Of a stretch of DNA of 64,000 nucleotides, positions 553-24,072 are shown piece by piece. Under the pieces are notes generated by a model that was not told where the DNA came from, made no database searches, and saw only the letters and a program-made list of their open reading frames with translations. Numbering within the stretch: position 1 is the stretch's first letter; every line of letters begins with the position of its first letter. A program made the position numbers and the translations under genes. The stretch lies in the NCBI GenBank assembly GCA_050010755.1, contig JBEKKK010000001.1, positions 192,001 through 256,000 of the forward strand, read 5' to 3'. The DNA comes from Candidatus Bathyarchaeia archaeon (lineage in GTDB: Archaea > Thermoproteota > Bathyarchaeia > Bathyarchaeales > Bathycorpusculaceae).

Positions 553-612
553 GCAACATGAAAACTTACAAAGCAACATTACATCTGATGTAAAGAAAAA
601 AAGGGGAGGGGG
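553..612 (+). repeat. Dispersed intergenic repeat, copy 1
   Basis: gcaacatgaaaacttacaaagcaacattacatctgatgtaaagaaaaaaaggggaggggg; palindromic core TTACATC-T-GATGTAA at 579-593. Confidence 0.95.
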
Positions 613-2938: not shown

Positions 2939-3210
2939 CGTTTCATCACTTGCCAAATAGCTTGTATCAAGTCTTAATAAACCATACTGTCCTCCTGAAC
3001 AACAAAAATACACAAAACCAAAAACAACACAAACCCACCACAACAAAAAACAAAAACAAACAAAGAACCCAAAAAACCAAACAGCAAAATCCCAACCCGC
3101 CCAGACGACCATACTGCCGCACGAACCGCGACGGCCGCCAGGCCCAGCGCAAGCCTCAGAACGAGAACAGGAAATGGAAAACACGGTTACCGGAGATTCT
3201 GTGCGAGTAA

Positions 3211-3280
3211 CATGCAAATTTACGCTTACACATTACAAAGCAACATTACAACAGACGTAAAGAAAAAAAAGGGGAGGGGG
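3211..3280 (+). repeat. Dispersed repeat, copy 2
   Basis: catgcaaatttacgcttacacattacaaagcaacattacaacagacgtaaagaaaaaaaaggggaggggg. Confidence 0.95.
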
Positions 3281-3299
3281 AGTCGTTCACAGCGAAACG

Positions 3300-3370
3300 C
3301 AACATGGACACACACGTGGATCCATTACATCCCAACATTACATCTGATGTAAAGAAAAAAAAAGGGAGGG
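3300..3370 (+). repeat. Dispersed repeat, copy 3
   Basis: caacatggacacacacgtggatccattacatcccaacattacatctgatgtaaagaaaaaaaaagggaggg; first 29 bp identical to 20492-20520. Confidence 0.95.
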
Positions 3371-3413
3371 AGCAGCGCGCGCGAGGAAACGAAAACGAGG
3401 AGGTGAAAACAGG

Positions 3414-3695
3414 TTGAGCAAAGATCAAACAATCGGCGCAGCAATAGCCTTAGTGTGCGCAGTTGTAGGCGTACTCTACACTCTAGGACTCTTCTACTGG
3501 GGATACTGGACAGCCGGCCGCTCATGGGCCCTATCGTTCACACTCGTAGCGCTTCCAATGTTCGTAGCATTCATCGCAATAATGGGCATAGGCGCATGGA
3601 TAGGCTGGACAATGGCCACAACCCCACCCCCAAAACCAATAGAAGAAATAACAAGCGCAGACGAGACAAAACCCGCAGAAAACAAAGAGCCATAA
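3414..3695 (+). CDS. Conserved small archaeal 2-TM membrane protein
   Basis: GGAGGTGA SD; WIGWTMATTPPPKPIEEI motif typical of a conserved TACK family. Confidence 0.8.
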   Translation: MSKDQTIGAAIALVCAVVGVLYTLGLFYWGYWTAGRSWALSFTLVALPMFVAFIAIMGIGAWIGWTMATTPPPKPIEEITSADETKPAENKEP

Positions 3696-3868
3696 CCAAA
3701 CCGTGCCGCCCGCTAGAGTCAAAGCCACCCTGGCAACCCGCAACACTCATTCCATTCTCTCTTCAGACGCCCAGACGACCCTTCCGCCGCACAAACCGCG
3801 GCAGTCGCCATCGGCCCAGCGCAAGCTCAGAACACCCGTAAAAACACTGATTCGGAAACACGCACTAT

Positions 3869-3938
3869 CAACATGGAAATTTACGCTGCAACATTACAAA
3901 GCAACATTACAACAGACGTAAAGAAAAAAAGGGGAGGG
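3869..3938 (+). repeat. Dispersed repeat, copy 4
   Basis: caacatggaaatttacgctgcaacattacaaagcaacattacaacagacgtaaagaaaaaaaggggaggg. Confidence 0.95.
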
Positions 3939-3982
3939 ACCGTTCGCAGTTGAAACCTTCCACCATGGCACGACGTCAAACA

Positions 3983-4103
3983 TCACAATGCAACATTATA
4001 ATTAACCTCACAAACAAACGAAAAAAAGCCCGCCGTAAGCCACGGTCAAGCCTGTTTTCAACATCGTCTGTCACAAAACAACATTACAACTAACCTCACA
4101 AAC
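3983..4103 (+). repeat. Pair of 33-bp imperfect direct repeats (3983-4015, 4071-4103) containing the CAACATTA half-motif
   Basis: tcacaatgcaacattataattaacctcacaaac vs tcacaaaacaacattacaactaacctcacaaac. Confidence 0.8.
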
Positions 4104-4123
4104 GCGGAGACGGGAGTCAAAAC

Positions 4124-4164
4124 GCAACATGGAAAACTTACAAAGCAACATTACATTACAACAT
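4124..4164 (+). repeat. Left half of split repeat (attL-like junction)
   Basis: gcaacatggaaaacttacaaagcaacattacattacaacat matches the 5' part of copy 1, then switches abruptly to element sequence. Confidence 0.85.
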
Positions 4165-4302
4165 AACCGACTCTTTTTGTCGGTTTATGAAGGTGCATTA
4201 AAATCGAAAAGTTAATCAGTTGATTAAAAAAGTCGAAAGTGCATAACAGAAAAACGTTTTAGCGACTCTGATGCTATATTTTAGGGAAAGGTGTGAGACA
4301 TT

Positions 4303-4728
4303 ATGGCAAATTCTGAAGAATACACAAAGATTGAAACTGTAGATTACGATTTTTATTTGAATAATGAACGAACAGTTTTCATTAAAAATTTTAAGGCTCG
4401 ATATGTGCCTATTCCCCTAGGGCTTGTAGGAGCCCTTGCAAGCGAAGCAATTCTTCACGCTGGAAAAAGTAAAGCTAAAGAGAAGAATCAGGAAATGAAG
4501 GATATGACTAAGGATATGACTTTAGATGAAAAATTGCAAAAAATCAAGGGCAGTTTTGCAGTAGCTCATAACGATGTAGAGTGGATTTGCCTTAGTAAAG
4601 GGCAATTGAATTTTAAAGCTAATAAAGTCTGGAAGTTTCTGAAGTTAAATAAGGAACAGTTTAGTCAATTCTCAAGTTTGCTTCCAAATATTCAGCTACT
4701 TAAGGATAAAACGAAAATAACCTATTGA
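4303..4728 (+). CDS. Hypothetical protein (element cargo)
   Basis: 141-aa ORF with AGGTG SD; AT-rich. Confidence 0.7.
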   Translation: MANSEEYTKIETVDYDFYLNNERTVFIKNFKARYVPIPLGLVGALASEAILHAGKSKAKEKNQEMKDMTKDMTLDEKLQKIKGSFAVAHNDVEWICLSKGQLNFKANKVWKFLKLNKEQFSQFSSLLPNIQLLKDKTKITY

Positions 4729-4760
4729 CAGTCCAACAGAAGACAAACTAGAGGTTAAAA

Positions 4761-5171
4761 ATGAGCAATCAAATAGTCGGTAACATAGGTCTTTACTATA
4801 TATGCTATGAATTATCGAAACGAGGTTGGAATGTTTTACCAACCTCAAGAAACGCAAAGGGTGTGGACTTGGTTATCTATAGTCAGGATGTCACCCGTAA
4901 GCATACTTTACAAGTTAAGACTCTGAGAAAGAGAAACCCCGTTCCTTTTGGAAATAGACCAAGTTTAATGGCGGATTATTTGGTAATTTGCAGAGTATCG
5001 GGTGAGAAGCCAGAGGTTTTTGTTACAGAAATTAATGATGATATAAAAAATAGAATCGAGAAAAAAACAAAGAATGAAAAAATAAGCTATTGGCTTCAAA
5101 TAAAAAATTATGAAGAGTTTAAAGACAATTGGGGTATAATTGGTAACGGTTCACTAGAGGTTCAAAAATGA
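4761..5171 (+). CDS. PD-(D/E)XK family endonuclease (Hjc/restriction-like)
   Basis: L..RGW.V........GVDL ... LQVKT motif pattern of PD-(D/E)XK nucleases. Confidence 0.75.
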   Translation: MSNQIVGNIGLYYICYELSKRGWNVLPTSRNAKGVDLVIYSQDVTRKHTLQVKTLRKRNPVPFGNRPSLMADYLVICRVSGEKPEVFVTEINDDIKNRIEKKTKNEKISYWLQIKNYEEFKDNWGIIGNGSLEVQK

Positions 5172-5803
5172 GTGAAAAGCTACCACTACCAGAACCACCA
5201 CTACCGCCGCCGCCACCACCCAATGACATGAGTGAAAAGGAAAGACGTAGGCTTGATGACCTATTCAATATTGCACTTGTGATTATTACCGTATTAGGAG
5301 CGGCTGAATTCGCATTCGTTGCCGCTGTTCTTTCTTTCTCCAAAGACATTAGCACGGATACCTATCTTAGCACGATAAGGTATGCCTTCTGGATTTCCAC
5401 GTATCCAATAATTTCACTTGTCATATGTTGGGTTTTGAAAGAATCTATTTCTTTTCTGGGAGTGCCTCAAGATGCTTCAAAAGTGCATATTGCAAACTGC
5501 ATCAAAAACCTAGTCGTGTTCGTTACAGAATTCTGCTGGTATTTTTGGGCGATTATACTCTATTTCTTCTTGAATTATTTTCTAACTTTCGTAACGGGGA
5601 ATACTAGTTTTCTCTTCACAATCTTTCATTGGGTCGTTACGGCAATCCCTTGGCTGTCTTTAGATGTTGCAATTGGATATGCTTACAGAAGAGCACTTGG
5701 AGATTTTTATTCTCCATGCAAATCAGTGGCATATTCTATGGGCGCATTTTGGTGTTCATTTATCACAATGATTTTTTACGCGCTAGCGCTTAGTATCCAT
5801 TAA
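5168..5803 (+). CDS. Multi-pass membrane protein with N-terminal polyproline tract
   Basis: ATGA overlap with nuclease gene; about 5 TM helices. Confidence 0.75.
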   Translation: MSEKLPLPEPPLPPPPPPNDMSEKERRRLDDLFNIALVIITVLGAAEFAFVAAVLSFSKDISTDTYLSTIRYAFWISTYPIISLVICWVLKESISFLGVPQDASKVHIANCIKNLVVFVTEFCWYFWAIILYFFLNYFLTFVTGNTSFLFTIFHWVVTAIPWLSLDVAIGYAYRRALGDFYSPCKSVAYSMGAFWCSFITMIFYALALSIH

Positions 5804-5870
5804 CTCGGCAACAGATAAAAAAAATACAGAAAGGCTCTAGTCAAGCTGAAAGAGGAAGAGCGGAATAAAG

Positions 5871-6221
5871 TTACCATGTACCTGAACCCGTGTCGTTATG
5901 TATCTTATCGCTAAATTGACAGCACATACGACACAAACCATCAAGAATGCTTTCTAGCTCTTCCTCTTGCTTCTTTTTCTTCTTTTCCGACATTTTATCT
6001 TTAAGGTTGCTTCTTGCCATTCCGTAAGCACAAATCATAAAGTCCAAGATGTGCTCGAAATCTCGAATCATTCTCGGTTTAAACGGTGCAACACCATAAA
6101 CGGGTTTAACGGGTTTAACAACGGGTTTAACGGTTTTCTGATTAGCTCTTCTCTCTCGCATGTAATTCTTAAAGTAGGAATTTCGCTTTTTCTTGTTCTT
6201 GAACGGCACAAATACCACCAA
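5871..6221 (-). CDS. Basic hypothetical protein with VKP repeats
   Basis: YFKNYMRERR helix; 9-bp tandem repeats AACGGGTTT at about 6099-6135. Confidence 0.65.
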   Translation of the reverse strand: MVVFVPFKNKKKRNSYFKNYMRERRANQKTVKPVVKPVKPVYGVAPFKPRMIRDFEHILDFMICAYGMARSNLKDKMSEKKKKKQEEELESILDGLCRMCCQFSDKIHNDTGSGTW

Positions 6222-6233
6222 AAAAAGAAGGGT

Positions 6234-6665
6234 TTACTTTCTCCGTCCTTGTTTACTTGTGTGAGGTGTCGGTTTTTCTAAATAAGAAATTTCCGCTCTA
6301 AGATGTTTCGCTTTCTCTTCATTACCGCTTTCCTCAGCTAGTTTTAACTGTCTCTTCTTAGTTTCGATTCTCCGCTCTAGCGGTGTTAAACTGTTGAATC
6401 GTTCTCTCTCTTCTTTCTCCTTTTCCCGTGCGCTTTTGCTGTCTTGTGCTTTCTGTTGTTTCTTTTGCCGAGACTCTAAAGCGGTTAATTCATAGCGTTT
6501 ATGAAGGGTTTCATAGACTTCCTTCGGCAATTTGTCTTTGTAAAACTCGGTCAAAACCCACAAAACCCGTGTTGCACTCAGTTGATTATTGTCGGCACAG
6601 TCTTTTTGAAGCAACATAGCCAACTCTAACGGCAAATAAAGAACTATACCGCGCGGTGTTGACAT
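6234..6665 (-). CDS. Hypothetical protein, possible RHH N-terminus plus coiled coil
   Basis: 143-aa ORF; beta-strand/helix/helix-like N-terminus; charged C-terminus. Confidence 0.65.
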   Translation of the reverse strand: MSTPRGIVLYLPLELAMLLQKDCADNNQLSATRVLWVLTEFYKDKLPKEVYETLHKRYELTALESRQKKQQKAQDSKSAREKEKEERERFNSLTPLERRIETKKRQLKLAEESGNEEKAKHLRAEISYLEKPTPHTSKQGRRK

Positions 6666-6675
6666 GGGTTAAGCC

Positions 6676-6837
6676 TCATTGAGTGGGGTTTTGTGTAATG
6701 GTTACTACACACTTAGACGAACCGCAATAACAACACCTAAAACGGTAAATCATACCGTTCTTGGTTGCTTTCTTGCCGTTCTTACTCATAAGAGTCTTGC
6801 ACTTGTCGCACCGTGGACGCTCGATATTTTCCGACAT
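6676..6837 (-). CDS. Small zinc-ribbon protein (53 aa; not in ORF track)
   Basis: MSENIERPRCDKCKTLMSKNGKKATKNGMIYRFRCCYCG...; CxxC...CxxC. Confidence 0.65.
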   Translation of the reverse strand: MSENIERPRCDKCKTLMSKNGKKATKNGMIYRFRCCYCGSSKCVVTITQNPTQ

Positions 6838-7589
6838 TTCACATCTACTTAGATAGACTATTACACACCAACTATTAAACTTTGCGGAGAATTACCCATG
6901 CACAAAACACCTTGAGCACAAACCCACCGCTAACCCTAGACTCGAACCTTATCAACACAATTTGTTAAAATCCGAGCGTAGAAAAGAAAGAGACAAATAC
7001 ACACTTTCATCTGGTTAGTGTGTAATAGTCTAGGTAGGTAGACAAGTGGTAGTAGTTAGTAGTAGGGAAAGCCTAGAGGACACCCGACACCCACCCAGAA
7101 CAGCTAAGTTATCACCCCAAAAACCCTCAAACCACTACTGAAAAACTACTTAATAGTGCTGAAAAAGGACGGGTGTGTTCATTTAAACGCGCCTATGTGG
7201 TGGATGTTGGCTTATGAATCTGGGTTGAACTATTCGTTTAATCGTACTAAAGTAATGATGTTTTCCATTCATTTAATCCATAATTGTAATGGTTCTCCAT
7301 GCACTCGAACGACTTTGAACGTGGCGCAACGGTTGAAATAGCCCAGAATCGGATTTAAGTCCCCCACTAGTGCCACATTCTAGCCCGTTTCAATCCGTAG
7401 CGTCCGTCCTTACACTTTTTGATAAGGGTTTGGTGGGTGTGGGGTTAGTCAGTAGCTACTGAAAAACTACTTACTAACTACTGAAAAGTGCTAACTCGGG
7501 ACAGGGACGGGTTTAACTGTCACTAACTCTTTTTGTATAACTGTAGAATAACCTTTAAATACCTCAGAGTAATACATGTAATGTAAGTA
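6838..7589. promoter_or_regulatory. Divergent control region / putative replication origin of the element
   Basis: About 750 bp non-coding between divergent gene sets; perfect 15-bp IR at 6854-6868/7018-7032; 18-bp DR at 7135-7152/7456-7473. Confidence 0.55.
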
Positions 7590-7997
7590 ATGGTGATAAC
7601 CGTGGAAGTAACTACGATTTCAATTGACAGAAAGACGCTCGAAAAACTCAGTGTCATAGCGGTTAAAGCTAGCATGACGAAAACGGAGCTAGTGACCGCA
7701 TACGTTGACGCACTCTTTAAACTCATTGAAGAGGCACGACCACCGAGCCAAAAAATCAGCTTAACAACTTTTGACATTGACCTTTTACACGGCACACTCA
7801 AACAGTCGTTCGCCAATTTGTACGACATAACCGAGCTACCCGACTTTATTCAAAACTTCTATTCGTGCCAAAAATTCATTGAAGACGGAGAAGCTAAAAC
7901 CCGATTCTACACGAAAGAGGAACTACTGAAAGAGGGTTTCAACGGTGCAGACATTGACATTTTGCTAGATGAACAGAAAAGGAGATTTAAGAAATGA
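7590..7997 (+). CDS. Ribbon-helix-helix (CopG-like) DNA-binding protein
   Basis: TTISIDRKTLEKLSVIA....MTKTELV RHH pattern. Confidence 0.75.
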   Translation: MVITVEVTTISIDRKTLEKLSVIAVKASMTKTELVTAYVDALFKLIEEARPPSQKISLTTFDIDLLHGTLKQSFANLYDITELPDFIQNFYSCQKFIEDGEAKTRFYTKEELLKEGFNGADIDILLDEQKRRFKK

Positions 7998-8623
7998 GCG
8001 AAGAAAACCAAGATAAGAAAGTAAAGGTTCAGATAGACGTAAACAACAAAGGAACAGAGGAATTAGTTAAGCTACTGAAAGAGAAAGAAGCTAAGGAAAA
8101 TGAAGGGTTCGACTTAGCTGGAAAAATCGCAGAGGCAAACGAAAAGTTTCACACTCAAATGTTTTCACAAGCACAAAACAGACAAATGTTAGCTTCAATG
8201 ATAACGTCTTTCGTTAACGACATAGCTTCACGCACAAACCCGACACCACCGAGCACAGGAACAGCACCGCTAAATGATGCTCAGTACGGAGCTAGACCTC
8301 AAGACCTCTATACTAAACCCTATACTGATTTTCAGAGTTTAGTTAAGGATTTGAGGGAAAAGGCGCGGAGCGGTTCAAAAGAAGCGGAAAGTTATCTTAA
8401 CTCACTTTTTGAGAAGCACCGAGAGCTTAAAATGCAAGACCCACACAGACCCGAGCCTAGTTATAACCCCAATTCACCAGAAGCCTTAGAAGAACTTAAC
8501 CTAGTGAAAAAGGACGGATTTCTAACACCCTCTAAGGTTGAGGACGGAGATTTAGGTCAATTGCAAAAGAAATGGCGTGAGGAAAGAAAAAGACAGAAAG
8601 AAGAGGGAGAAGTGAAGGCATAA
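7994..8623 (+). CDS. Hypothetical element protein
   Basis: 209-aa ORF, ATGA-coupled. Confidence 0.75.
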   Translation: MSEENQDKKVKVQIDVNNKGTEELVKLLKEKEAKENEGFDLAGKIAEANEKFHTQMFSQAQNRQMLASMITSFVNDIASRTNPTPPSTGTAPLNDAQYGARPQDLYTKPYTDFQSLVKDLREKARSGSKEAESYLNSLFEKHRELKMQDPHRPEPSYNPNSPEALEELNLVKKDGFLTPSKVEDGDLGQLQKKWREERKRQKEEGEVKA

Positions 8624-9162
8624 TGAGCACCAACCAAGACGATATAAAAACTTACGTAAATATGGGTAGGGTTTTCGAAGATGAAAAAGGAGAACTCTAT
8701 TTCATAAAAACAACTGAAAAACGAAAGTTCATAATGCGAAGTTCTGATAACGGAGAACCAATTTTTGAAAAGACACCGTGCGCAACAAAAGAAGAGCACG
8801 TTACACCGAGCGAACTAGGATTCACAAAAAAAGATACACGGGATATTTACGTTTATAAAACCGAAAACTCGGAGCTAGAAGAACAAACCGTTTATTATTC
8901 TATGACTCTCACGTTTGAAATTCCACAAGAAAAGAAATACAAAACCGCTTATCTCCGAAAAGCCAAAAGCGGAAGGGTGTTTCTTGTTTGGTTCGATAGT
9001 GGGTGTTCGAGTGAAGTTTCCGTTAATGATTCAGAGTTTTGTAAACGCTCGAAAGGTAAACGACTAGAACCCGACACTATCATAAACCGTAACGCTCCAA
9101 TTTTCACGCTTTCGGCAAGTGGAGAACTAGAACTTAGACTAGATTCAAGTAAGGTTTGGTAG
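8623..9162 (+). CDS. Hypothetical element protein
   Basis: 179-aa ORF, TAATG-coupled. Confidence 0.75.
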   Translation: MSTNQDDIKTYVNMGRVFEDEKGELYFIKTTEKRKFIMRSSDNGEPIFEKTPCATKEEHVTPSELGFTKKDTRDIYVYKTENSELEEQTVYYSMTLTFEIPQEKKYKTAYLRKAKSGRVFLVWFDSGCSSEVSVNDSEFCKRSKGKRLEPDTIINRNAPIFTLSASGELELRLDSSKVW

Positions 9163-9166
9163 GTAG

Positions 9167-9367
9167 GTGAAAAAGAAAATGGAAAACTTAGCGGAAGAGC
9201 AAAAGAAACGGATAGAGGAAGAAAAAAAGAAACGTCTTCAAACGATAGAAATTCAAGGACAAACCGAAGCACGAAAAAACGCAACGGATGACGGCAATAA
9301 GAAAGAACAAGATATACATGATGAAGTCGTAGAAGGCGAAGATTATCCGTTCACAGAAGGACGTTAG
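9167..9367 (+). CDS. Small charged hypothetical protein
   Basis: Operon context; AGGTGA SD before ATG near 9179. Confidence 0.6.
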   Translation: MKKKMENLAEEQKKRIEEEKKKRLQTIEIQGQTEARKNATDDGNKKEQDIHDEVVEGEDYPFTEGR

Positions 9368-9379
9368 AAAACATCACAT

Positions 9380-9451
9380 CGTTCGTCCCACAACGAACGC
9401 ACGGTTAAGGGTTTTCTTTTGTGGTTTAGAAGGTTTTCCTTTAACCGTGCG
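9380..9451. other. Two overlapping hairpins
   Basis: cgttcgt/acgaacg (9380-9399) and cgcacggttaa/ttaaccgtgcg (9398-9408/9441-9451). Confidence 0.7.
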
Positions 9452-9474
9452 CTCAAAATTATGAGGTTGAAAAT

Positions 9475-9711
9475 ATGAACAAAGAAGAACGAAAAGAATA
9501 TCATAAGCTGAAAATGCGTGAATTACGCAAAACCCCAGAATACAGACTTTATAATAGGCTTTATATGCGTGAATATAGGCGAAAACACCTTAAAAACCGA
9601 AAGCACCTTAAAACTTACTCAATTAAGGTTAATGCGCTCGGAATTGTGAAGGAAGAACAATTCGAAATTCCTACCGAACCCTTGAACGTGCCTAAAGAGG
9701 TTGTTGTTTAA
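9475..9711 (+). CDS. Small basic protein (YMREYRR helix)
   Basis: GAGGT SD; Arg/Lys/Tyr-rich helix common in viral proteins. Confidence 0.65.
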   Translation: MNKEERKEYHKLKMRELRKTPEYRLYNRLYMREYRRKHLKNRKHLKTYSIKVNALGIVKEEQFEIPTEPLNVPKEVVV

Positions 9712-10244
9712 TGTCGGACATTGACGAATACAACCAACTTAGCGCGGTTGACCAAGCATATATCAGCACTTATGGATGGGATATGTACCGCAAGAAGAAA
9801 GCACTCGAAGAGAACGGCAAGTTTCCAAGACAGCAACAGAGCACACCACAACCGCAAGAGGAAAGCATAGAAGAGACAGAACAAGAGGAAGAACCCGAGA
9901 CAGCAACAGACGAAGAAAAAGAAGAGTGGGAAAAAGAACTTGAAGAATCCGACTTTAAAGAGCGAAAAGAAAAGATTCTTGAAACTATCGAAGCCCAGCT
10001 TAAAGCGGAACAAGACACAGACGAATTAACATTATGGATTAAGTCAAACAAAGACCTTGAAACCCTTGTGAGAACTTTTCTAGGTTGCATAAAGACTCTT
10101 GGTAAATACAAAGACCCACAAAAAGCCACGATAATTATTAAGAAAAAGAACGAACGACTTTTCTTCAACTTTAAGTTGGTTGACGAAAACGGCGAAGATG
10201 TGATGTTCGACCCGAAAACAGGTAATGTGGCGAAGATAAATTGA
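9711..10244 (+). CDS. Acidic hypothetical element protein
   Basis: 177-aa ORF, TAATG-coupled. Confidence 0.75.
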   Translation: MSDIDEYNQLSAVDQAYISTYGWDMYRKKKALEENGKFPRQQQSTPQPQEESIEETEQEEEPETATDEEKEEWEKELEESDFKERKEKILETIEAQLKAEQDTDELTLWIKSNKDLETLVRTFLGCIKTLGKYKDPQKATIIIKKKNERLFFNFKLVDENGEDVMFDPKTGNVAKIN

Positions 10245-10435
10245 AGTGCGCTTTTTGCGGTCAATCTCTCTATGGCTCATTAAGAGTTTATGATAGTAAT
10301 AGTCGTGCGTTTTGCAGTCGTGGCTGTAAAGAAGATTATCAGAGACGTATGGCTCAAATTGACAAGAAAAGACGTGCTCAGAGCATAGCTGAAAGGCAAC
10401 AAAAAAGGCTTATGGAGTGGACAGGAGACGATTAG
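10241..10435 (+). CDS. TRASH/FCS-type zinc-finger protein
   Basis: CAFCG...FCSRGC motif. Confidence 0.7.
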   Translation: MKCAFCGQSLYGSLRVYDSNSRAFCSRGCKEDYQRRMAQIDKKRRAQSIAERQQKRLMEWTGDD

Positions 10436-10634
10436 AAAAAGGTGGATTGACGTGTCCGCTTATGAGTGTGACCGCAAACGGACAAAGAACCTCAAATTCG
10501 CGTCCTATGTTCGAACCAAGCATAAGGCGAAAGTTGAAAGCGAAATGTTTCAGAAGGTGGCGTTTACTTGAACCCTAACCCGATTAAACCGATTTTACCA
10601 AACCCGAATAAAAAACCGAAAAAGAGGCTCTAAA

Positions 10635-10826
10635 ATGAATGTTGTATGCCTTATCACCCGTGCGAAAATTGACGCAATGTTTCAGAACTACACACCCGAA
10701 AACGTTGACAAAACTAAGGAAGAAATTAATCCTCACTTGTTGCGGTGTGCCGAGTGCCGAGAATATCTTAACGCTCAATTCGAAAAAAAGAGAATGGAGA
10801 ATGAAAAAAATGGCAATGGTTGTTAG
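10635..10826 (+). CDS. Small protein with HxxxCxxC zinc motif
   Basis: HLLRCAEC; GAGG SD. Confidence 0.55.
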   Translation: MNVVCLITRAKIDAMFQNYTPENVDKTKEEINPHLLRCAECREYLNAQFEKKRMENEKNGNGC

Positions 10827-11256
10827 CTACGGGAACCCGAGCGAGATAAAAGAGAAGTTCGAGTCGGAAGAACGAGTTAAGGCTCAACTTGCCGAAATTC
10901 GGGACGGGTTATGTGAGGAAATCATAAACGAGCTAGATTCTATAATGCAAAAAGTGTTAGCTAGTGCAATTGAACTTTGTCCTAAAGATACGGGTGCATT
11001 AGCATCGAGCATTAACTTAGAAGGTGGTGCAATTTCACAAGGAAATGATTTTTATGAGGCTAACATCTATGCTGGAAGTGACGATATTATTAATTACAAA
11101 ACGGGAAAAGCTACGTCTGAATATGCTCAATATGTTGAGGACGGACACGGAACTTATGAGGGTGTGCCGTTTCTTGAAGAGGCTATGATGAAATATGAGA
11201 ACGAGCTAGAACTAGCGGTAAACCGCGCCTTAGCTGAATTGTGCACGGGTGATTAG
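10801..11256 (+). CDS. HK97 gp10-like phage neck/tail-completion family protein
   Basis: A..LCPKDTGALASSI ... YAQYVEDG ... PFL..A motifs of the HK97-gp10 family. Confidence 0.75.
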   Translation: MKKMAMVVSYGNPSEIKEKFESEERVKAQLAEIRDGLCEEIINELDSIMQKVLASAIELCPKDTGALASSINLEGGAISQGNDFYEANIYAGSDDIINYKTGKATSEYAQYVEDGHGTYEGVPFLEEAMMKYENELELAVNRALAELCTGD

Positions 11257-11307
11257 ATGATAATCAATTTTTCAAAAAAAGTTCGCCTATGCGGAGCGTG
11301 TTAAAAG

Positions 11308-11685
11308 TTGACGGTTGAACCCTCAGAGGAAATTCGAAAGAAGGAACAAAAGGCAAGATGGAACCACACGGCATATTTGAAGAGGAAAGCGAAACAAGAA
11401 CCCGAAAAACTTAGCGATAATCAAGTGATAGAGCACACAAGCAACAAAGAACACTTCTTAGGAAAAAGCGAAAGCGAAGAGTTTCCAGAGCACCGCGCTT
11501 ATGCGGAAGTTTTCAGCACACCCAGAGACAGACTTTTAGAAGGTTTGAATCCTAGACCAATGATTAAAAGGTCAAGTGACGACCCGTTAGCTTATGGTGA
11601 AAAAGGCACGTTTATCTGTTCTATACATGGGTGTCCCTTAACTAAAAGAGGGTGTCCCGTGTGCAACGGAGAACAAGACGCTTAG
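11308..11685 (+). CDS. Hypothetical protein with C-terminal zinc ribbon
   Basis: CSIH...CPVC. Confidence 0.65.
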   Translation: MTVEPSEEIRKKEQKARWNHTAYLKRKAKQEPEKLSDNQVIEHTSNKEHFLGKSESEEFPEHRAYAEVFSTPRDRLLEGLNPRPMIKRSSDDPLAYGEKGTFICSIHGCPLTKRGCPVCNGEQDA

Positions 11686-11986
11686 AAGTCACGGGAAAGC
11701 TGAACCAAGTTGAGAATGAAAATAGCAAAAAGCCTTGCCTCACCGCTATTAGACGAAATCGCCGCTCTAGGTTTTCGCACCTAGACAATAAGCGAAAGTT
11801 TGACTTTCCCGAGACAAATTAATAGAAAAAGGTAGGGTGTTTAAGGTACAAATTCGCTTTCTTCTTCTTCCTCATTGATTGTTGTGTCGTTTGGGGTTTC
11901 GGTTTCGTCCGTGGGTTCGTCTTGTTGGTTTTTTGGCACGGTAAGAAAAAGGCGAACGAAGACTTTCTTAAGTTTTTCTTTTGCGG

Positions 11987-12292
11987 TCACTCGAACACCT
12001 TCCTTCTTTTGACATCACTTAATATCACTTCTTTGCCTTTAACTAGCCAAGTCACACGGTAAACCCAATTTACTTTAGTATTTATTATTTCCGCATCTGG
12101 AAATTGCTCTCTAATGCTTTTGTAGATTAGCTTTCTCTCTTCTGGGTTTGGATATGTCTTTTCGTCCACATAGGCTGTTATGTCTGTTTTTTTGCCGTAT
12201 TTTTTCTCAATAGCCTTGATTTTGCGAGCAACTTCTAAATTAGTCTCTTCAATCAGCTTTTCCACGTCTTTTTTATAGTCATTCTTCACCAA
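11987..12292 (-). CDS. Hypothetical protein downstream of integrase
   Basis: AGGTGA SD; 101-aa ORF. Confidence 0.7.
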   Translation of the reverse strand: MVKNDYKKDVEKLIEETNLEVARKIKAIEKKYGKKTDITAYVDEKTYPNPEERKLIYKSIREQFPDAEIINTKVNWVYRVTWLVKGKEVILSDVKRRKVFE

Positions 12293-12307
12293 GTTTTCAC
12301 CTTCTTT

Positions 12308-13405
12308 CTAGTCAACCTTCACTTTCTGTTTAATGTTCAATTTCTTCTCTATCAAGTCTCGGAAATCGTTAAGTTCGCCTATGCTCTTGCTCATAGTGTT
12401 TTGGTTCTTCCGCAATACCTCAATTTCGGCATCCTTAGAAGCTATTTCCTTTTCTAATCGTTGAACGGTTGCCTCTAGTGCCTCAATCTTAACGTGGTTC
12501 TTGCCGTTTCCGTTAATGATTATGCTCGGCATAGCCCTTAGATACACTTCTCTTAATTGGTCTTGGCTAACATAAGCACCCTCACTAATCGCCTTTCCGA
12601 CAATTTGTTTCCATTGGCTCTCACTAGCAACCGCGCTAAGACGGTCAATAAGATATTTTCTGAGGTTGTGAAATCTAACCCGTTTTTCTCCGCTTTCAAG
12701 ACGTGCCTTTTTGAAAAGGTTCTGAACACAAGCGGTTAAGTTTTCCTCATCCCAATCTAGCACTCGGTCACTATTTTTCTTATCTGGGTTTCGCTCTAGC
12801 ATTGCCTTAACGACTTGAACAGCGTCACTATCAAGAAACGGGTAAGCTGGAATATGCTCCTTACCCGTTGCTTTTTCGCCTAAGAAAACGGGTGCTTCAC
12901 TGTCTAAGTGAATGCTTCTAAAGTCTCCGAAAGTGTAGGTAACGAAATCACCAGCACGTAAGCCTATGCTTTTGCCGACAAGCAAAACGTAACGCTCAAT
13001 AAAAGAGCCTTGTTCAACCATTCGGGCTAAGTCTTCTTTCGCAAAAAGATAGTCTTGTGTCGTTCTGTTGCTTTCTTGAAGCCTATCGCTTTCTTGCCTT
13101 GTGAAGACTAGAGGCACACGTTTAGAAGTGAAAAAGCCTCTTATCGCCGAAACACCCACGTTAGCATAGTTCTCAGATTTTTTGCACTCGTTGATTATGT
13201 ACGCTTTAAAGTTCATAACTAGCTTTTCGGTTTCAGCGTCCTTATCAGCTTTCCTAAATTCCAAAAGTGCCTTTCCGTTCATATGGGAAAAGTTAATCCA
13301 ATATTTCAGAATCGACCCGTAAGCGTTCTTACTGTTTGGCTTTAGGCTGTTCAAGAATGCCGTAAACTCAGAATCAAGTTTTTCTTCGCATTTTATTGCT
13401 TTCAT
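12308..13405 (-). CDS. int: Tyrosine recombinase/integrase (365 aa) with C-terminal coiled coil
   Basis: GLRAGD (R), RFHNLRK (HxxR), G....EGAY (Tyr nucleophile); start set at MKAIKC because the longer ORF runs across the att site. Confidence 0.9.
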   Translation of the reverse strand: MKAIKCEEKLDSEFTAFLNSLKPNSKNAYGSILKYWINFSHMNGKALLEFRKADKDAETEKLVMNFKAYIINECKKSENYANVGVSAIRGFFTSKRVPLVFTRQESDRLQESNRTTQDYLFAKEDLARMVEQGSFIERYVLLVGKSIGLRAGDFVTYTFGDFRSIHLDSEAPVFLGEKATGKEHIPAYPFLDSDAVQVVKAMLERNPDKKNSDRVLDWDEENLTACVQNLFKKARLESGEKRVRFHNLRKYLIDRLSAVASESQWKQIVGKAISEGAYVSQDQLREVYLRAMPSIIINGNGKNHVKIEALEATVQRLEKEIASKDAEIEVLRKNQNTMSKSIGELNDFRDLIEKKLNIKQKVKVD

Positions 13406-13484
13406 TCTCACACTTTCCTTATGAAGTATTACGACACCGAGTCTTTTAAATGTTTGGTCTAAACCGACAATTTTTAGCGGTAAA

Positions 13485-13526
13485 TACAACATTACATCAG
13501 ATGTAAAGAAAAAAAAGGGAGGGGGG
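13485..13526 (+). repeat. Right half of split repeat (attR-like junction)
   Basis: tacaacattacatcagatgtaaagaaaaaaaagggagggggg. Confidence 0.9.
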
Positions 13527-13625
13527 CACCGTTCAACGCTTAAAACCGTGCAACCCAACACGATGTTAAGGACAAACCAAAAACGAGAACAAGCCATCGC
13601 ATGAACACCGCCCAAACACCGGAGA

Positions 13626-13767
13626 TGGTGCGGGGGATGGGGTTTGAACCCATGCAGCCCTACGGCAACAGGTCTCTTAAAACGCAGCCTATTCCGAATG
13701 CAAATCTTTTGTTCTGGGCGGCGTTCTCCTAAGCCTGTCTCCTTTGGCCAAACTCGGACACCCCCGC
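13626..13767 (-). tRNA. trnL: tRNA-Leu(TAG) with canonical 37/38 intron (54 nt, 13674-13727), CCA encoded
   Basis: GCGGGGG/CCCCCGC acceptor stem; ACAGG/CCTGT anticodon stem; BHB central helix CTTA/TAAG; long variable arm. Confidence 0.93.
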
Positions 13768-23682: not shown

Positions 23683-23921
23683 AACAACCGCCACCACTTT
23701 TAGCATAGAACGCGTTTATCTATAAACATTACGCGCACGACAAAGCAAATCTTCCCCCGAAACCTATGCTGGCCGTCCCGCTCACATCCTTAACTCCAAC
23801 AGATGACTGGACAACCACAGGGCCACGCAAGCCACAGCCAAAAAACCAGACCGAGGACATCAAACACCGCAATCCAAAGAACTTGAGAACAAGAACGCTG
23901 GATTACAGGTATCTCCCCAAC

Positions 23922-23996
23922 CAACATTGAAAACTTACATTGCAACATTACATTGCAACATTACATCTGATGTAAAGAAAAAAAAGGGAGGGAGGG
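23922..23996 (+). repeat. Dispersed repeat copy with duplicated 13-bp unit
   Basis: caacattgaaaacttacattgcaacattacattgcaacattacatctgatgtaaagaaaaaaaagggagggaggg. Confidence 0.95.
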
Positions 23997-24072
23997 CCGA
24001 CACCGCCTAAATCTGCAGAACACACTTACACCCACTCAAAGACAGGAAGAAACCAGCGCCAACGATGAAGGT

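Follow-up and report, generated by a model that had tools for sequence, protein, structure and literature searches.

Closest among described archaeal systems to the element treated here are the non-suicidal elements of the pNOB8 or lambda type, in which an intact integrase gene lies beside attP, a short direct repeat flanks the element, the GC content is below that of the host and the cargo is cryptic. All of these traits, as given in the sections on such elements in a review of archaeal tyrosine recombinases (PMC8371274), recur in an integrase-bearing element of a Bathyarchaeia archaeon that occupies positions 4165-13484 of the 64,000-nucleotide stretch of DNA analysed here (the window; positions 192,001 to 256,000 of contig JBEKKK010000001.1). 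The attB sites listed in section 19 of that review are tRNA genes, intergenic sites and protein-coding genes, with no multicopy repeat among them, whereas the target of the window element is one of about 56 copies of a repeat and not a tRNA gene or other single-copy site. The window integrase also differs from those of the pNOB8 or lambda type in falling below the Pfam and NCBIfam cut-offs and in having an extra C-terminal helix of about 60 residues. For integrated mobile elements of the Thaumarchaeota, the text on integration sites in PMC6563490 gives att sites of 8-26 bp and places 15 of 68 elements in intergenic positions; very short att sites, small size, cryptic content and tyrosine integrases are shared with the window element, and a multicopy repeat target is not reported in that text, its supplementary site table aside.

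An earlier note on this DNA, made from the sequence alone, had stated that no archaeal integrase was known to use a dispersed repeat as attB. The literature gave none either, in the text portions of PMC11705971, PMC10848311 and PMC11529989 and of the two papers cited above, on which supplementary att-site tables may bear; but the claim has to be read beside bacterial precedents. The relevant passages of PMC7058167 describe how Nf1 filamentous prophages of Neisseria integrate into dRS3 repeats, of which there are 200-700 copies per genome, and as with the window element the target is a dispersed repeat, so that insertion loci vary between genomes; unlike the window element, Nf1 is a bacterial system and a filamentous phage. 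The integron IntI/attC system offers another likeness, in the Xer-like fold of its recombinase (2a3v) and in its palindrome-bearing multicopy sites, some of them in tandem, but the window integrase rides on the mobile element itself, with no fixed platform and no attI. The Nf1 recombinase belongs to the Piv/IS110 type and not to the tyrosine recombinases. The latter are used by TnPZ/XerT of Helicobacter and CTnDOT of Bacteroides, where they need 7-10 bp of identity and have several chromosomal sites. Those sites are plain short words, whereas the insertions of the window element and its sisters (4/4) are confined to a structured repeat family.

Repeat halves at the two borders of the element

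The host genome is a metagenome-assembled genome (MAG) of 2.19 Mb in 8 contigs, 93% complete and with 4.4% contamination, of which the window is a part. Within the window the flanks have a GC content of 0.47-0.53 and the block 4165-13484 has one of 0.36-0.42, and we conclude that this block is very probably an integrative element of the Bathyarchaeia archaeon that was inserted precisely within one copy of a dispersed repeat. Read directly, the left flank is ...CAACATGGAAAACTTACAAAGCAACATTACAT-TACAACAT/AACCGACT and the right flank is GGTAAA-TACAACAT/TACATCAGATGTAAAGAAAAAAAAGGGAGGGGGG, where the slash follows the core. The earlier note had taken these flanks for the two halves of a dispersed repeat, and this was borne out, in that joining the halves restores an intact copy. 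It had also offered two registers for the crossover. With an 11-bp core, CAACATTACAT, excision gives a sequence that matches the intact copy at 553-612 in 58 of 60 aligned positions, and with an 8-bp core, TACAACAT, it gives one that matches the copy at 23922-23996 in 69 of 74. While both reconstructions stood up, the 11-bp core is the poorer choice, since the 8-bp core yields the modal form of the repeat: the 8-bp reconstruction fits better in 52 of the 58 other repeat copies, its best match being C2:8460, and the 11-bp one in the remaining 6. The 8-bp model gives the element a length of 9328 bp (Table 1).

Could the contig instead have been misjoined at a repeat, so that the element is not truly inserted at all? 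The MAG is in 8 contigs, and several of the contig ends stop at these integrase elements, as such an artefact would suggest. However, the two junctions complement each other as halves of a single repeat, share the 8-bp core and coincide with a clean step in GC content, and the same attR junction is present in a separately recorded metagenome contig of 630 kb, which may share the same sample. In addition, four of the eight sequencing runs listed as containing DNA of this stretch hold 81-98% of its sampled words (a measure of presence only), and two of them may be the source. An assembly artefact thus seems extremely improbable.

The right border lies close to an intron-bearing tRNA gene, and a tRNA-targeting element was considered and rejected: the core is about 135 nt from the tRNA, and a search with blastn-short finds no tRNA fragment at the left end. 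This agrees with the earlier note, which had seen no duplication of the tRNA and had called it tRNA-Leu. Read by eye, with a 5-bp anticodon stem (ACAGG/CCTGT), the gene is Leu(UAG) and its intron measures some 50 nt. When introns are allowed, ARAGORN gives Ser(GCT), with a weak anticodon stem; without introns it missed the gene, as did Rfam, which at the gathering level has only two tRNAs in the window. As a separate observation, in two congeners (L050 in G004:C12 and L051 in G003:C1) this tRNA has a different integrase gene as its neighbour, which stops 40-60 nt short of the tRNA 3' end and whose product has a tail, ...LLGHKNIKNTL.Y.H..., that is a classical box II. The tRNA thus appears to be an integration hot spot for another integrase family.

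The integrase and its sister elements

The integrase gene of the element is intact, and homologues of its product align from the Met at 13405. The AlphaFold model, with a predicted local distance difference test (pLDDT) score of 86.3, has two recombinase domains and a long C-terminal helix (residues 301-359), and Foldseek matched it to XerA (5hxy, E 8.9e-9), IntI (2a3v, E 1.2e-6) and lambda Int (E 2.7e-5), and also to XerH, Tn1549 Int and Cre, with 30 matches at E<=0.001; the catalytic domain of SSV1 Int was a weak fold match (E 0.11). Across an alignment of 24 members of the family, R150, K182, H246, R249 and Y278 never vary. By sequence, the protein reaches neither the Pfam PF00589 cut-off (16.0 bits against 27.1) nor that of NCBIfam XerA_Arch (19.3 bits against 220), and PDB sequence searches with the protein and with a 24-sequence profile found no recombinase, so that the fold search alone succeeded. 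Judging from the modelled structure, its fold resembles that of XerA, IntI and lambda Int, and the protein takes its place among the tyrosine recombinases as a very divergent member. The C-terminal helix (window 12308-12510) is found in all members of the family as a long, poorly conserved, coiled-coil-like extra segment of about 60 residues, and is absent from the PDB recombinases matched.

With an unbroken integrase gene and a core 80 nt upstream of the gene start, the element is not of the gene-splitting SSV type, and a "suicidal" (type I) integrase, with attP inside the gene, was rejected. An element exploiting XerA and dif (IMEX-like) was rejected too, since the element encodes its own recombinase, its site is multicopy and the XerA_Arch score is low. 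As entered in the database, the integrase (P0001, 394 aa) begins at an ATG that comes from the reverse complement of the att core CAACAT (window 13405-13492, minus strand); this start lies 29 codons upstream of the one supported by the homologues and is formed by the junction, and is thus an annotation artefact. Relatives of the integrase number 372 proteins at E<=0.001 among 2848 candidates, and the best 120 of these are 45-71% identical and almost all unannotated, so the family is large. It is found in Bathyarchaeia metagenomes and appears tied to this group. Metagenome contigs of 9.5-10 kb carry integrases that are 62-64% identical (P0003, P0004), while among viral contigs there were 7 pattern matches, none of them a relative.

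The three closest paralogues in the same genome, found with tblastn, are at C2:93-1091, C2:199486-200484 and C3:24487-25608, about 70%, 70% and 40% identical to the window integrase, respectively. The 5' end of each adjoins a junction of non-repeat DNA with the CAACAT of a different repeat copy, and in all four insertions the orientation relative to the repeat is the same, with the integrase start facing the 3' part of the repeat. The two C2 paralogues lie at both ends of that contig, facing outward, and both of their junctions read ...GACTGTTAAATG/CAACATTA/CATCTGATGTAAAG... (CATCTGATG as the right side), followed by different host DNA. Contig C8 carries a matching left end, CATTG/CAACATTA/TCAGTC, and the final 74 nt of this contig overlap, at 100% identity, with each end of C2. 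At the DNA level the integrase regions of the two C2 copies agree at 91.6%; their host flanks differ, which implies separate insertion events.

For the C3 element both ends are mapped, the left at C3:16387 (GTCACAAAA/CAACATTA/AAGTCG) and the right at C3:25718 (CCATAGTA/CAACATTA/CAACTAACC); it is about 9.3 kb long with a GC content of 0.37-0.43, and its removal restores a module of which the window has an intact version at 4069-4105. Within the composite repeat, this module is another CAACATTACA unit than that used by the window element. There are thus four independent insertions in this genome. The cargo genes are almost wholly different between the sister elements, and in tblastn searches with all open reading frames (ORFs) of the window element against the sister elements and 13 loci, the integrase gene is the only one widely shared.

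Three further observations concern the same genome. On C2, taken together with C8:11875-19792, two copies of a sister element (C2 1-1400 and 199370-200576) that are 91.6% identical and inverted to each other enclose about 198 kb of host DNA, a segment that could invert. A second low-GC block on C3 (116300-126000, GC 0.40-0.44) has stretches 72-85% identical to the C3 element, lacks an integrase and ends beside an intact repeat module; it is probably a decayed sister element. A low-GC block at C7:7000-16000 holds a distant integrase, 27% identical, and was rejected as an insertion in the CAACAT repeat, its borders lying elsewhere.

The dispersed repeat as a probable landing site

A 27-nt pattern with at most 3 mismatches finds 8 copies of the repeat in the window, against 0 in 100 shuffles, and 56 in the whole genome, against 0 for the reversed pattern. 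Each copy is made up of a CAACATGGAAAnnTTAC unit, then 1-3 CAACATTACA units, a palindrome, which is TTACATC-N-GATGTAA or, in a weaker form, TTAC...GTAA, and runs of A and of G, in many cases with CACCGTTCA as well; the multicopy part is about 85 bp. The CAACATTACA (ACATTAC) unit is present once, twice and three times in 8, 43 and 8 copies, respectively, and many copies stand in tandem, about 180-190 bp apart, with a recurring module between them. Among 40 related genomes, 39 have no copy and one (G004) has a single near-match, and 400 other genomes of the class gave a single hit with 2 mismatches, in 1 genome; among the genomes searched, the repeat is confined to the source species. A role as a promoter was rejected, with downstream genes in the same or opposite orientation in a ratio of 32/27 and upstream genes in one of 39/18 (from crude ORF-based gene calls). 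The inter-repeat module was also rejected as a structured RNA, as its alifold energy, -0.17 forward and 0.0 in reverse for 14 sequences (2 of 16 rows being dropped as outliers), was no better than that of column shuffles. The repeat was also compared with MITEs (terminal inverted repeats and a target-site duplication) and with REP sequences (a hairpin and a cognate transposase); what it offers for this comparison is its palindrome and, around the copy at 23922, a lineage-specific stretch of 326 bp with flanks that are not repeated.

The earlier note had proposed that the integrase uses an abundant multicopy intergenic repeat as attB, and this is supported by the anatomy of the junctions and by the four insertions in one repeat family; the integrase elements seem to have a repeat of many copies, not a tRNA gene, as their docking place. 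The element, which may still be active, probably entered by conservative site-specific recombination, with its own tyrosine integrase as the presumable catalyst. The attP would lie about 80 nt upstream of the integrase start, as a crossover core (T)ACAACAT, the presumable place of cleavage, between element-specific AACCGAC arm motifs, and attB would be the CAACAT(TA) unit that immediately precedes, on the 5' side, the palindrome of the intergenic repeat, of which the context beyond 8-10 bp would also be recognised. With about 56 copies of the repeat, the element would then have a wide choice of places to land. The same motif and the same repeat family would serve three or more related integrase lineages in this genome, and the wider family in other Bathyarchaeia may use other short, palindrome-bearing multicopy sequences.

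Several points weigh against this account. No empty-site allele and no circular attP junction were seen, and the metagenome contigs with the unique right-flank word come to one, which is identical to the window and occupied. There is also no cross-species empty site, since synteny with three congeners is absent on the left side of the tRNA and the left flank has no match in G001-G004; these four genomes do keep the right flank, with the tRNA beside it in G002-G004. As the host genome is a MAG, the paralogous elements could stem from co-assembled strains, and of the left ends expected for the two C2 copies only one was found, that on C8. No CAACAT repeat lies beside the 40-50% identical integrase relatives in other genomes, so that the earlier note's expectation of homologous integrases ending in the same repeat at different loci holds for the three paralogues in this genome and fails for those relatives. 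Among the relatives L013 is the one mapped element, and a family-wide habit has to be argued from it and from copy-number counts. Lastly, the identity cores between the element ends are short, at 8-10 bp.

So short an identity would also be expected if integration were of low specificity, such that a short core (CAACAT plus 2-4 bases) suffices, as for CTnDOT or TnPZ in bacteria, and the repeat is hit merely as a carrier of many such words. In keeping with this idea, 74 of the 175 CAACATTA words in the genome are in repeat territory, and the C3 insertion is in a different unit of the composite repeat from that of the window element. However, repeat territory, which makes up 0.35% of the genome, holds only 4 of the 79 occurrences of TACAACAT, and yet the window element is in the repeat, so the repeat context and not the word alone seems to be chosen. 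Since all four insertions are, moreover, in the repeat family and in the same orientation, we consider low specificity very unlikely.

Another reading would have the integrases themselves spread or remodel the repeats as miniature att-bearing cassettes, so that landing pads and elements form one system. The confinement of the repeat to this genome, the variation in CAACATTACA unit number, which would be expected from recombination in shifted registers, and the tandem copies with their recurring module could all be read in this way. The same holds for the copy at 23922-23996, which is within a 326-bp stretch (23741-24066) that is missing from G002, G003 and G004 at an otherwise colinear place, where two neighbour genes abut; only the central 75 bp or so of this stretch is repeated elsewhere, and its flanks are not. 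On the other hand, a conservative site-specific reaction leaves no trace behind, a circle of about 185 bp is too small to be plausible, the element-side arm sequence is missing from every copy of the repeat, and slippage or gene conversion could account for the variation in unit number. An origin of the repeats from the integrases is thus unlikely, and docking of the element at a pre-existing repeat is the reading that we prefer.

Cargo, relatives and significance

The body of the element contains about 20 ORFs, most of them without known relatives. Scans of 20 ORFs with Pfam, PHROGs and NCBIfam gave a single clear match, which is also the only virus-type gene, to a gp10-like tail-completion or neck protein of the HK97 type, with a 42%-identical relative in locus L014. 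A head-tailed provirus (Caudoviricetes) was rejected, since this neck protein alone was recognised and 9.3 kb is too small, but it is possible that the element is a satellite or remnant of a head-tailed virus. A casposon was rejected as well, there being no Cas1 match among the 20 ORFs scanned and the ends being halves of a pre-existing repeat. The small zinc-finger ORF has a 29%-identical relative on the C8 element, and an Atlas search with the ORF at 7994-8623 yielded nothing usable (best score 0.83). A 29-nt stretch of the element (window 5830-5858) matches exactly a distant chromosomal intergenic stretch at C1:420388-420416, and the C8 element carries a related stretch; a CRISPR-like context for the match at C1:420388 was rejected from its surroundings.

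Table 1. Positions, strands and supporting evidence of the features of the element, its target repeat and its neighbourhood in the window
Feature	Position	Strand	Evidence
Integrated element body, low GC, about 20 ORFs	4165..13484		GC profile, ORF list, family scans
attL copy, 8-bp core TACAACAT	4157..4164	+	direct reading; alternative 11-bp register 4146-4156
attR copy, 8-bp core TACAACAT	13485..13492	+	direct reading; 11-bp register 13487-13497
Left (5') part of composite repeat, ending in attL core	4079..4164	+	BLAST coverage 12-26 copies; matches left halves of intact copies
Right (3') repeat half: palindrome TTACATC-A-GATGTAA, A-run, G-run, CACCGTTCA	13485..13535	+	direct reading, repeat patterns
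Element-side arm hairpin AACCGAC-TCTTTTT-GTCGGTT, candidate integrase arm/core-type site	4165..4185	+	direct reading; putative binding role
Element-side arm motif AAACCGACAA: direct copy of 4165-4171, inverted relative to 4177-4186	13461..13470	+	direct reading; putative function
Tyrosine integrase, 365 aa, intact, start about 80 nt from core	12308..13405	-	alignment, AlphaFold model, Foldseek
Intact repeat copy, shorter form	553..612	+	direct reading, pattern scan
Three further intact repeat copies, anchors 3242, 3334, 3903	3210..3945	+	pattern scan, BLAST coverage
Intact repeat copy, modal form, inside 326-bp stretch (about 23741-24066)	23922..23996	+	direct reading, pattern scan, comparison
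ORF, possibly PD-(D/E)XK-like	4761..5171	+	phrog_5018 E 1.5e-7; Pfam PDDEXK_5 E 0.013, below cut-off
ORF, weak match to phage repressor family	7590..7997	+	phrog_876 E 7.7e-4
Small zinc-finger (TRASH / zf-FCS-like) ORF	10241..10435	+	Pfam zf-FCS E 1.7e-4, 21.8 bits vs cut-off 22.4
HK97-gp10-like tail-completion / neck protein	10639..11256	+	Pfam PF04883 26.4 bits vs cut-off 21.4; phrog_5 E 9.5e-13
Intron-bearing class II tRNA, about 135 nt from core, outside att site	13626..13767	-	ARAGORN with introns, reading by eye

Relatives of the integrase that are 46-50% identical are encoded at ten loci in Bathyarchaeia MAGs, none of which has the CAACAT repeat. One of these, the L013 element, with an integrase 50% identical to that of the window, is bounded by a 15-bp direct repeat, GTTGGTTGGATTAAA, with the two copies 9.07 kb apart. 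Counted with at most 1 mismatch in five of those genomes, this 15-mer has 20, 26, 0, 7 and 15 occurrences, where the reversed control has 0-2, and in intact copies it is the left half of a palindrome, GGATTAAA-W-TTTAATCC, with short tandem units before it; the five genomes have only 1-2 close integrases each. From this one mapped element, the L013 site appears to parallel that of the window, with tandem short units followed by a palindrome and the crossover predicted at the left edge. Elsewhere, in G042, the same palindrome occurs six times in 21 kb (C44 448-21113) and four times in 3 kb (C123 127207-130105); C44 has no integrase of the window family, and these palindrome strings look like cassette arrays.

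One could go further and suppose that the integrase family and species-specific palindromic repeats co-evolve, with the integrases creating, multiplying or reshuffling their own landing pads. We regard this as distinctly doubtful, but if true, it would explain why repeat and module alternate in tandem arrays in this genome and why palindromic sites are strung together in others, and would amount to an archaeal gene-capture landscape akin to the attC arrays of integrons, with the recombinase on the mobile part.

Docking of an integrase element at a repeat of many copies would itself widen the present picture, in which tRNA genes and single sites are the targets ascribed to archaeal integrases. 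Screens for elements that rely on a tRNA gene plus a direct repeat, or on Pfam PF00589, would miss such elements. Many-copy docking would also explain why assemblies break at them, and many interchangeable sites would invite inversions and deletions between copies, the 198-kb segment between two inverted copies being the case at hand. The integrase family would offer a compact recombinase with a short target that is naturally multicopy, and it would come from the Bathyarchaeia, which are abundant but uncultured and of whose mobile elements little is known.

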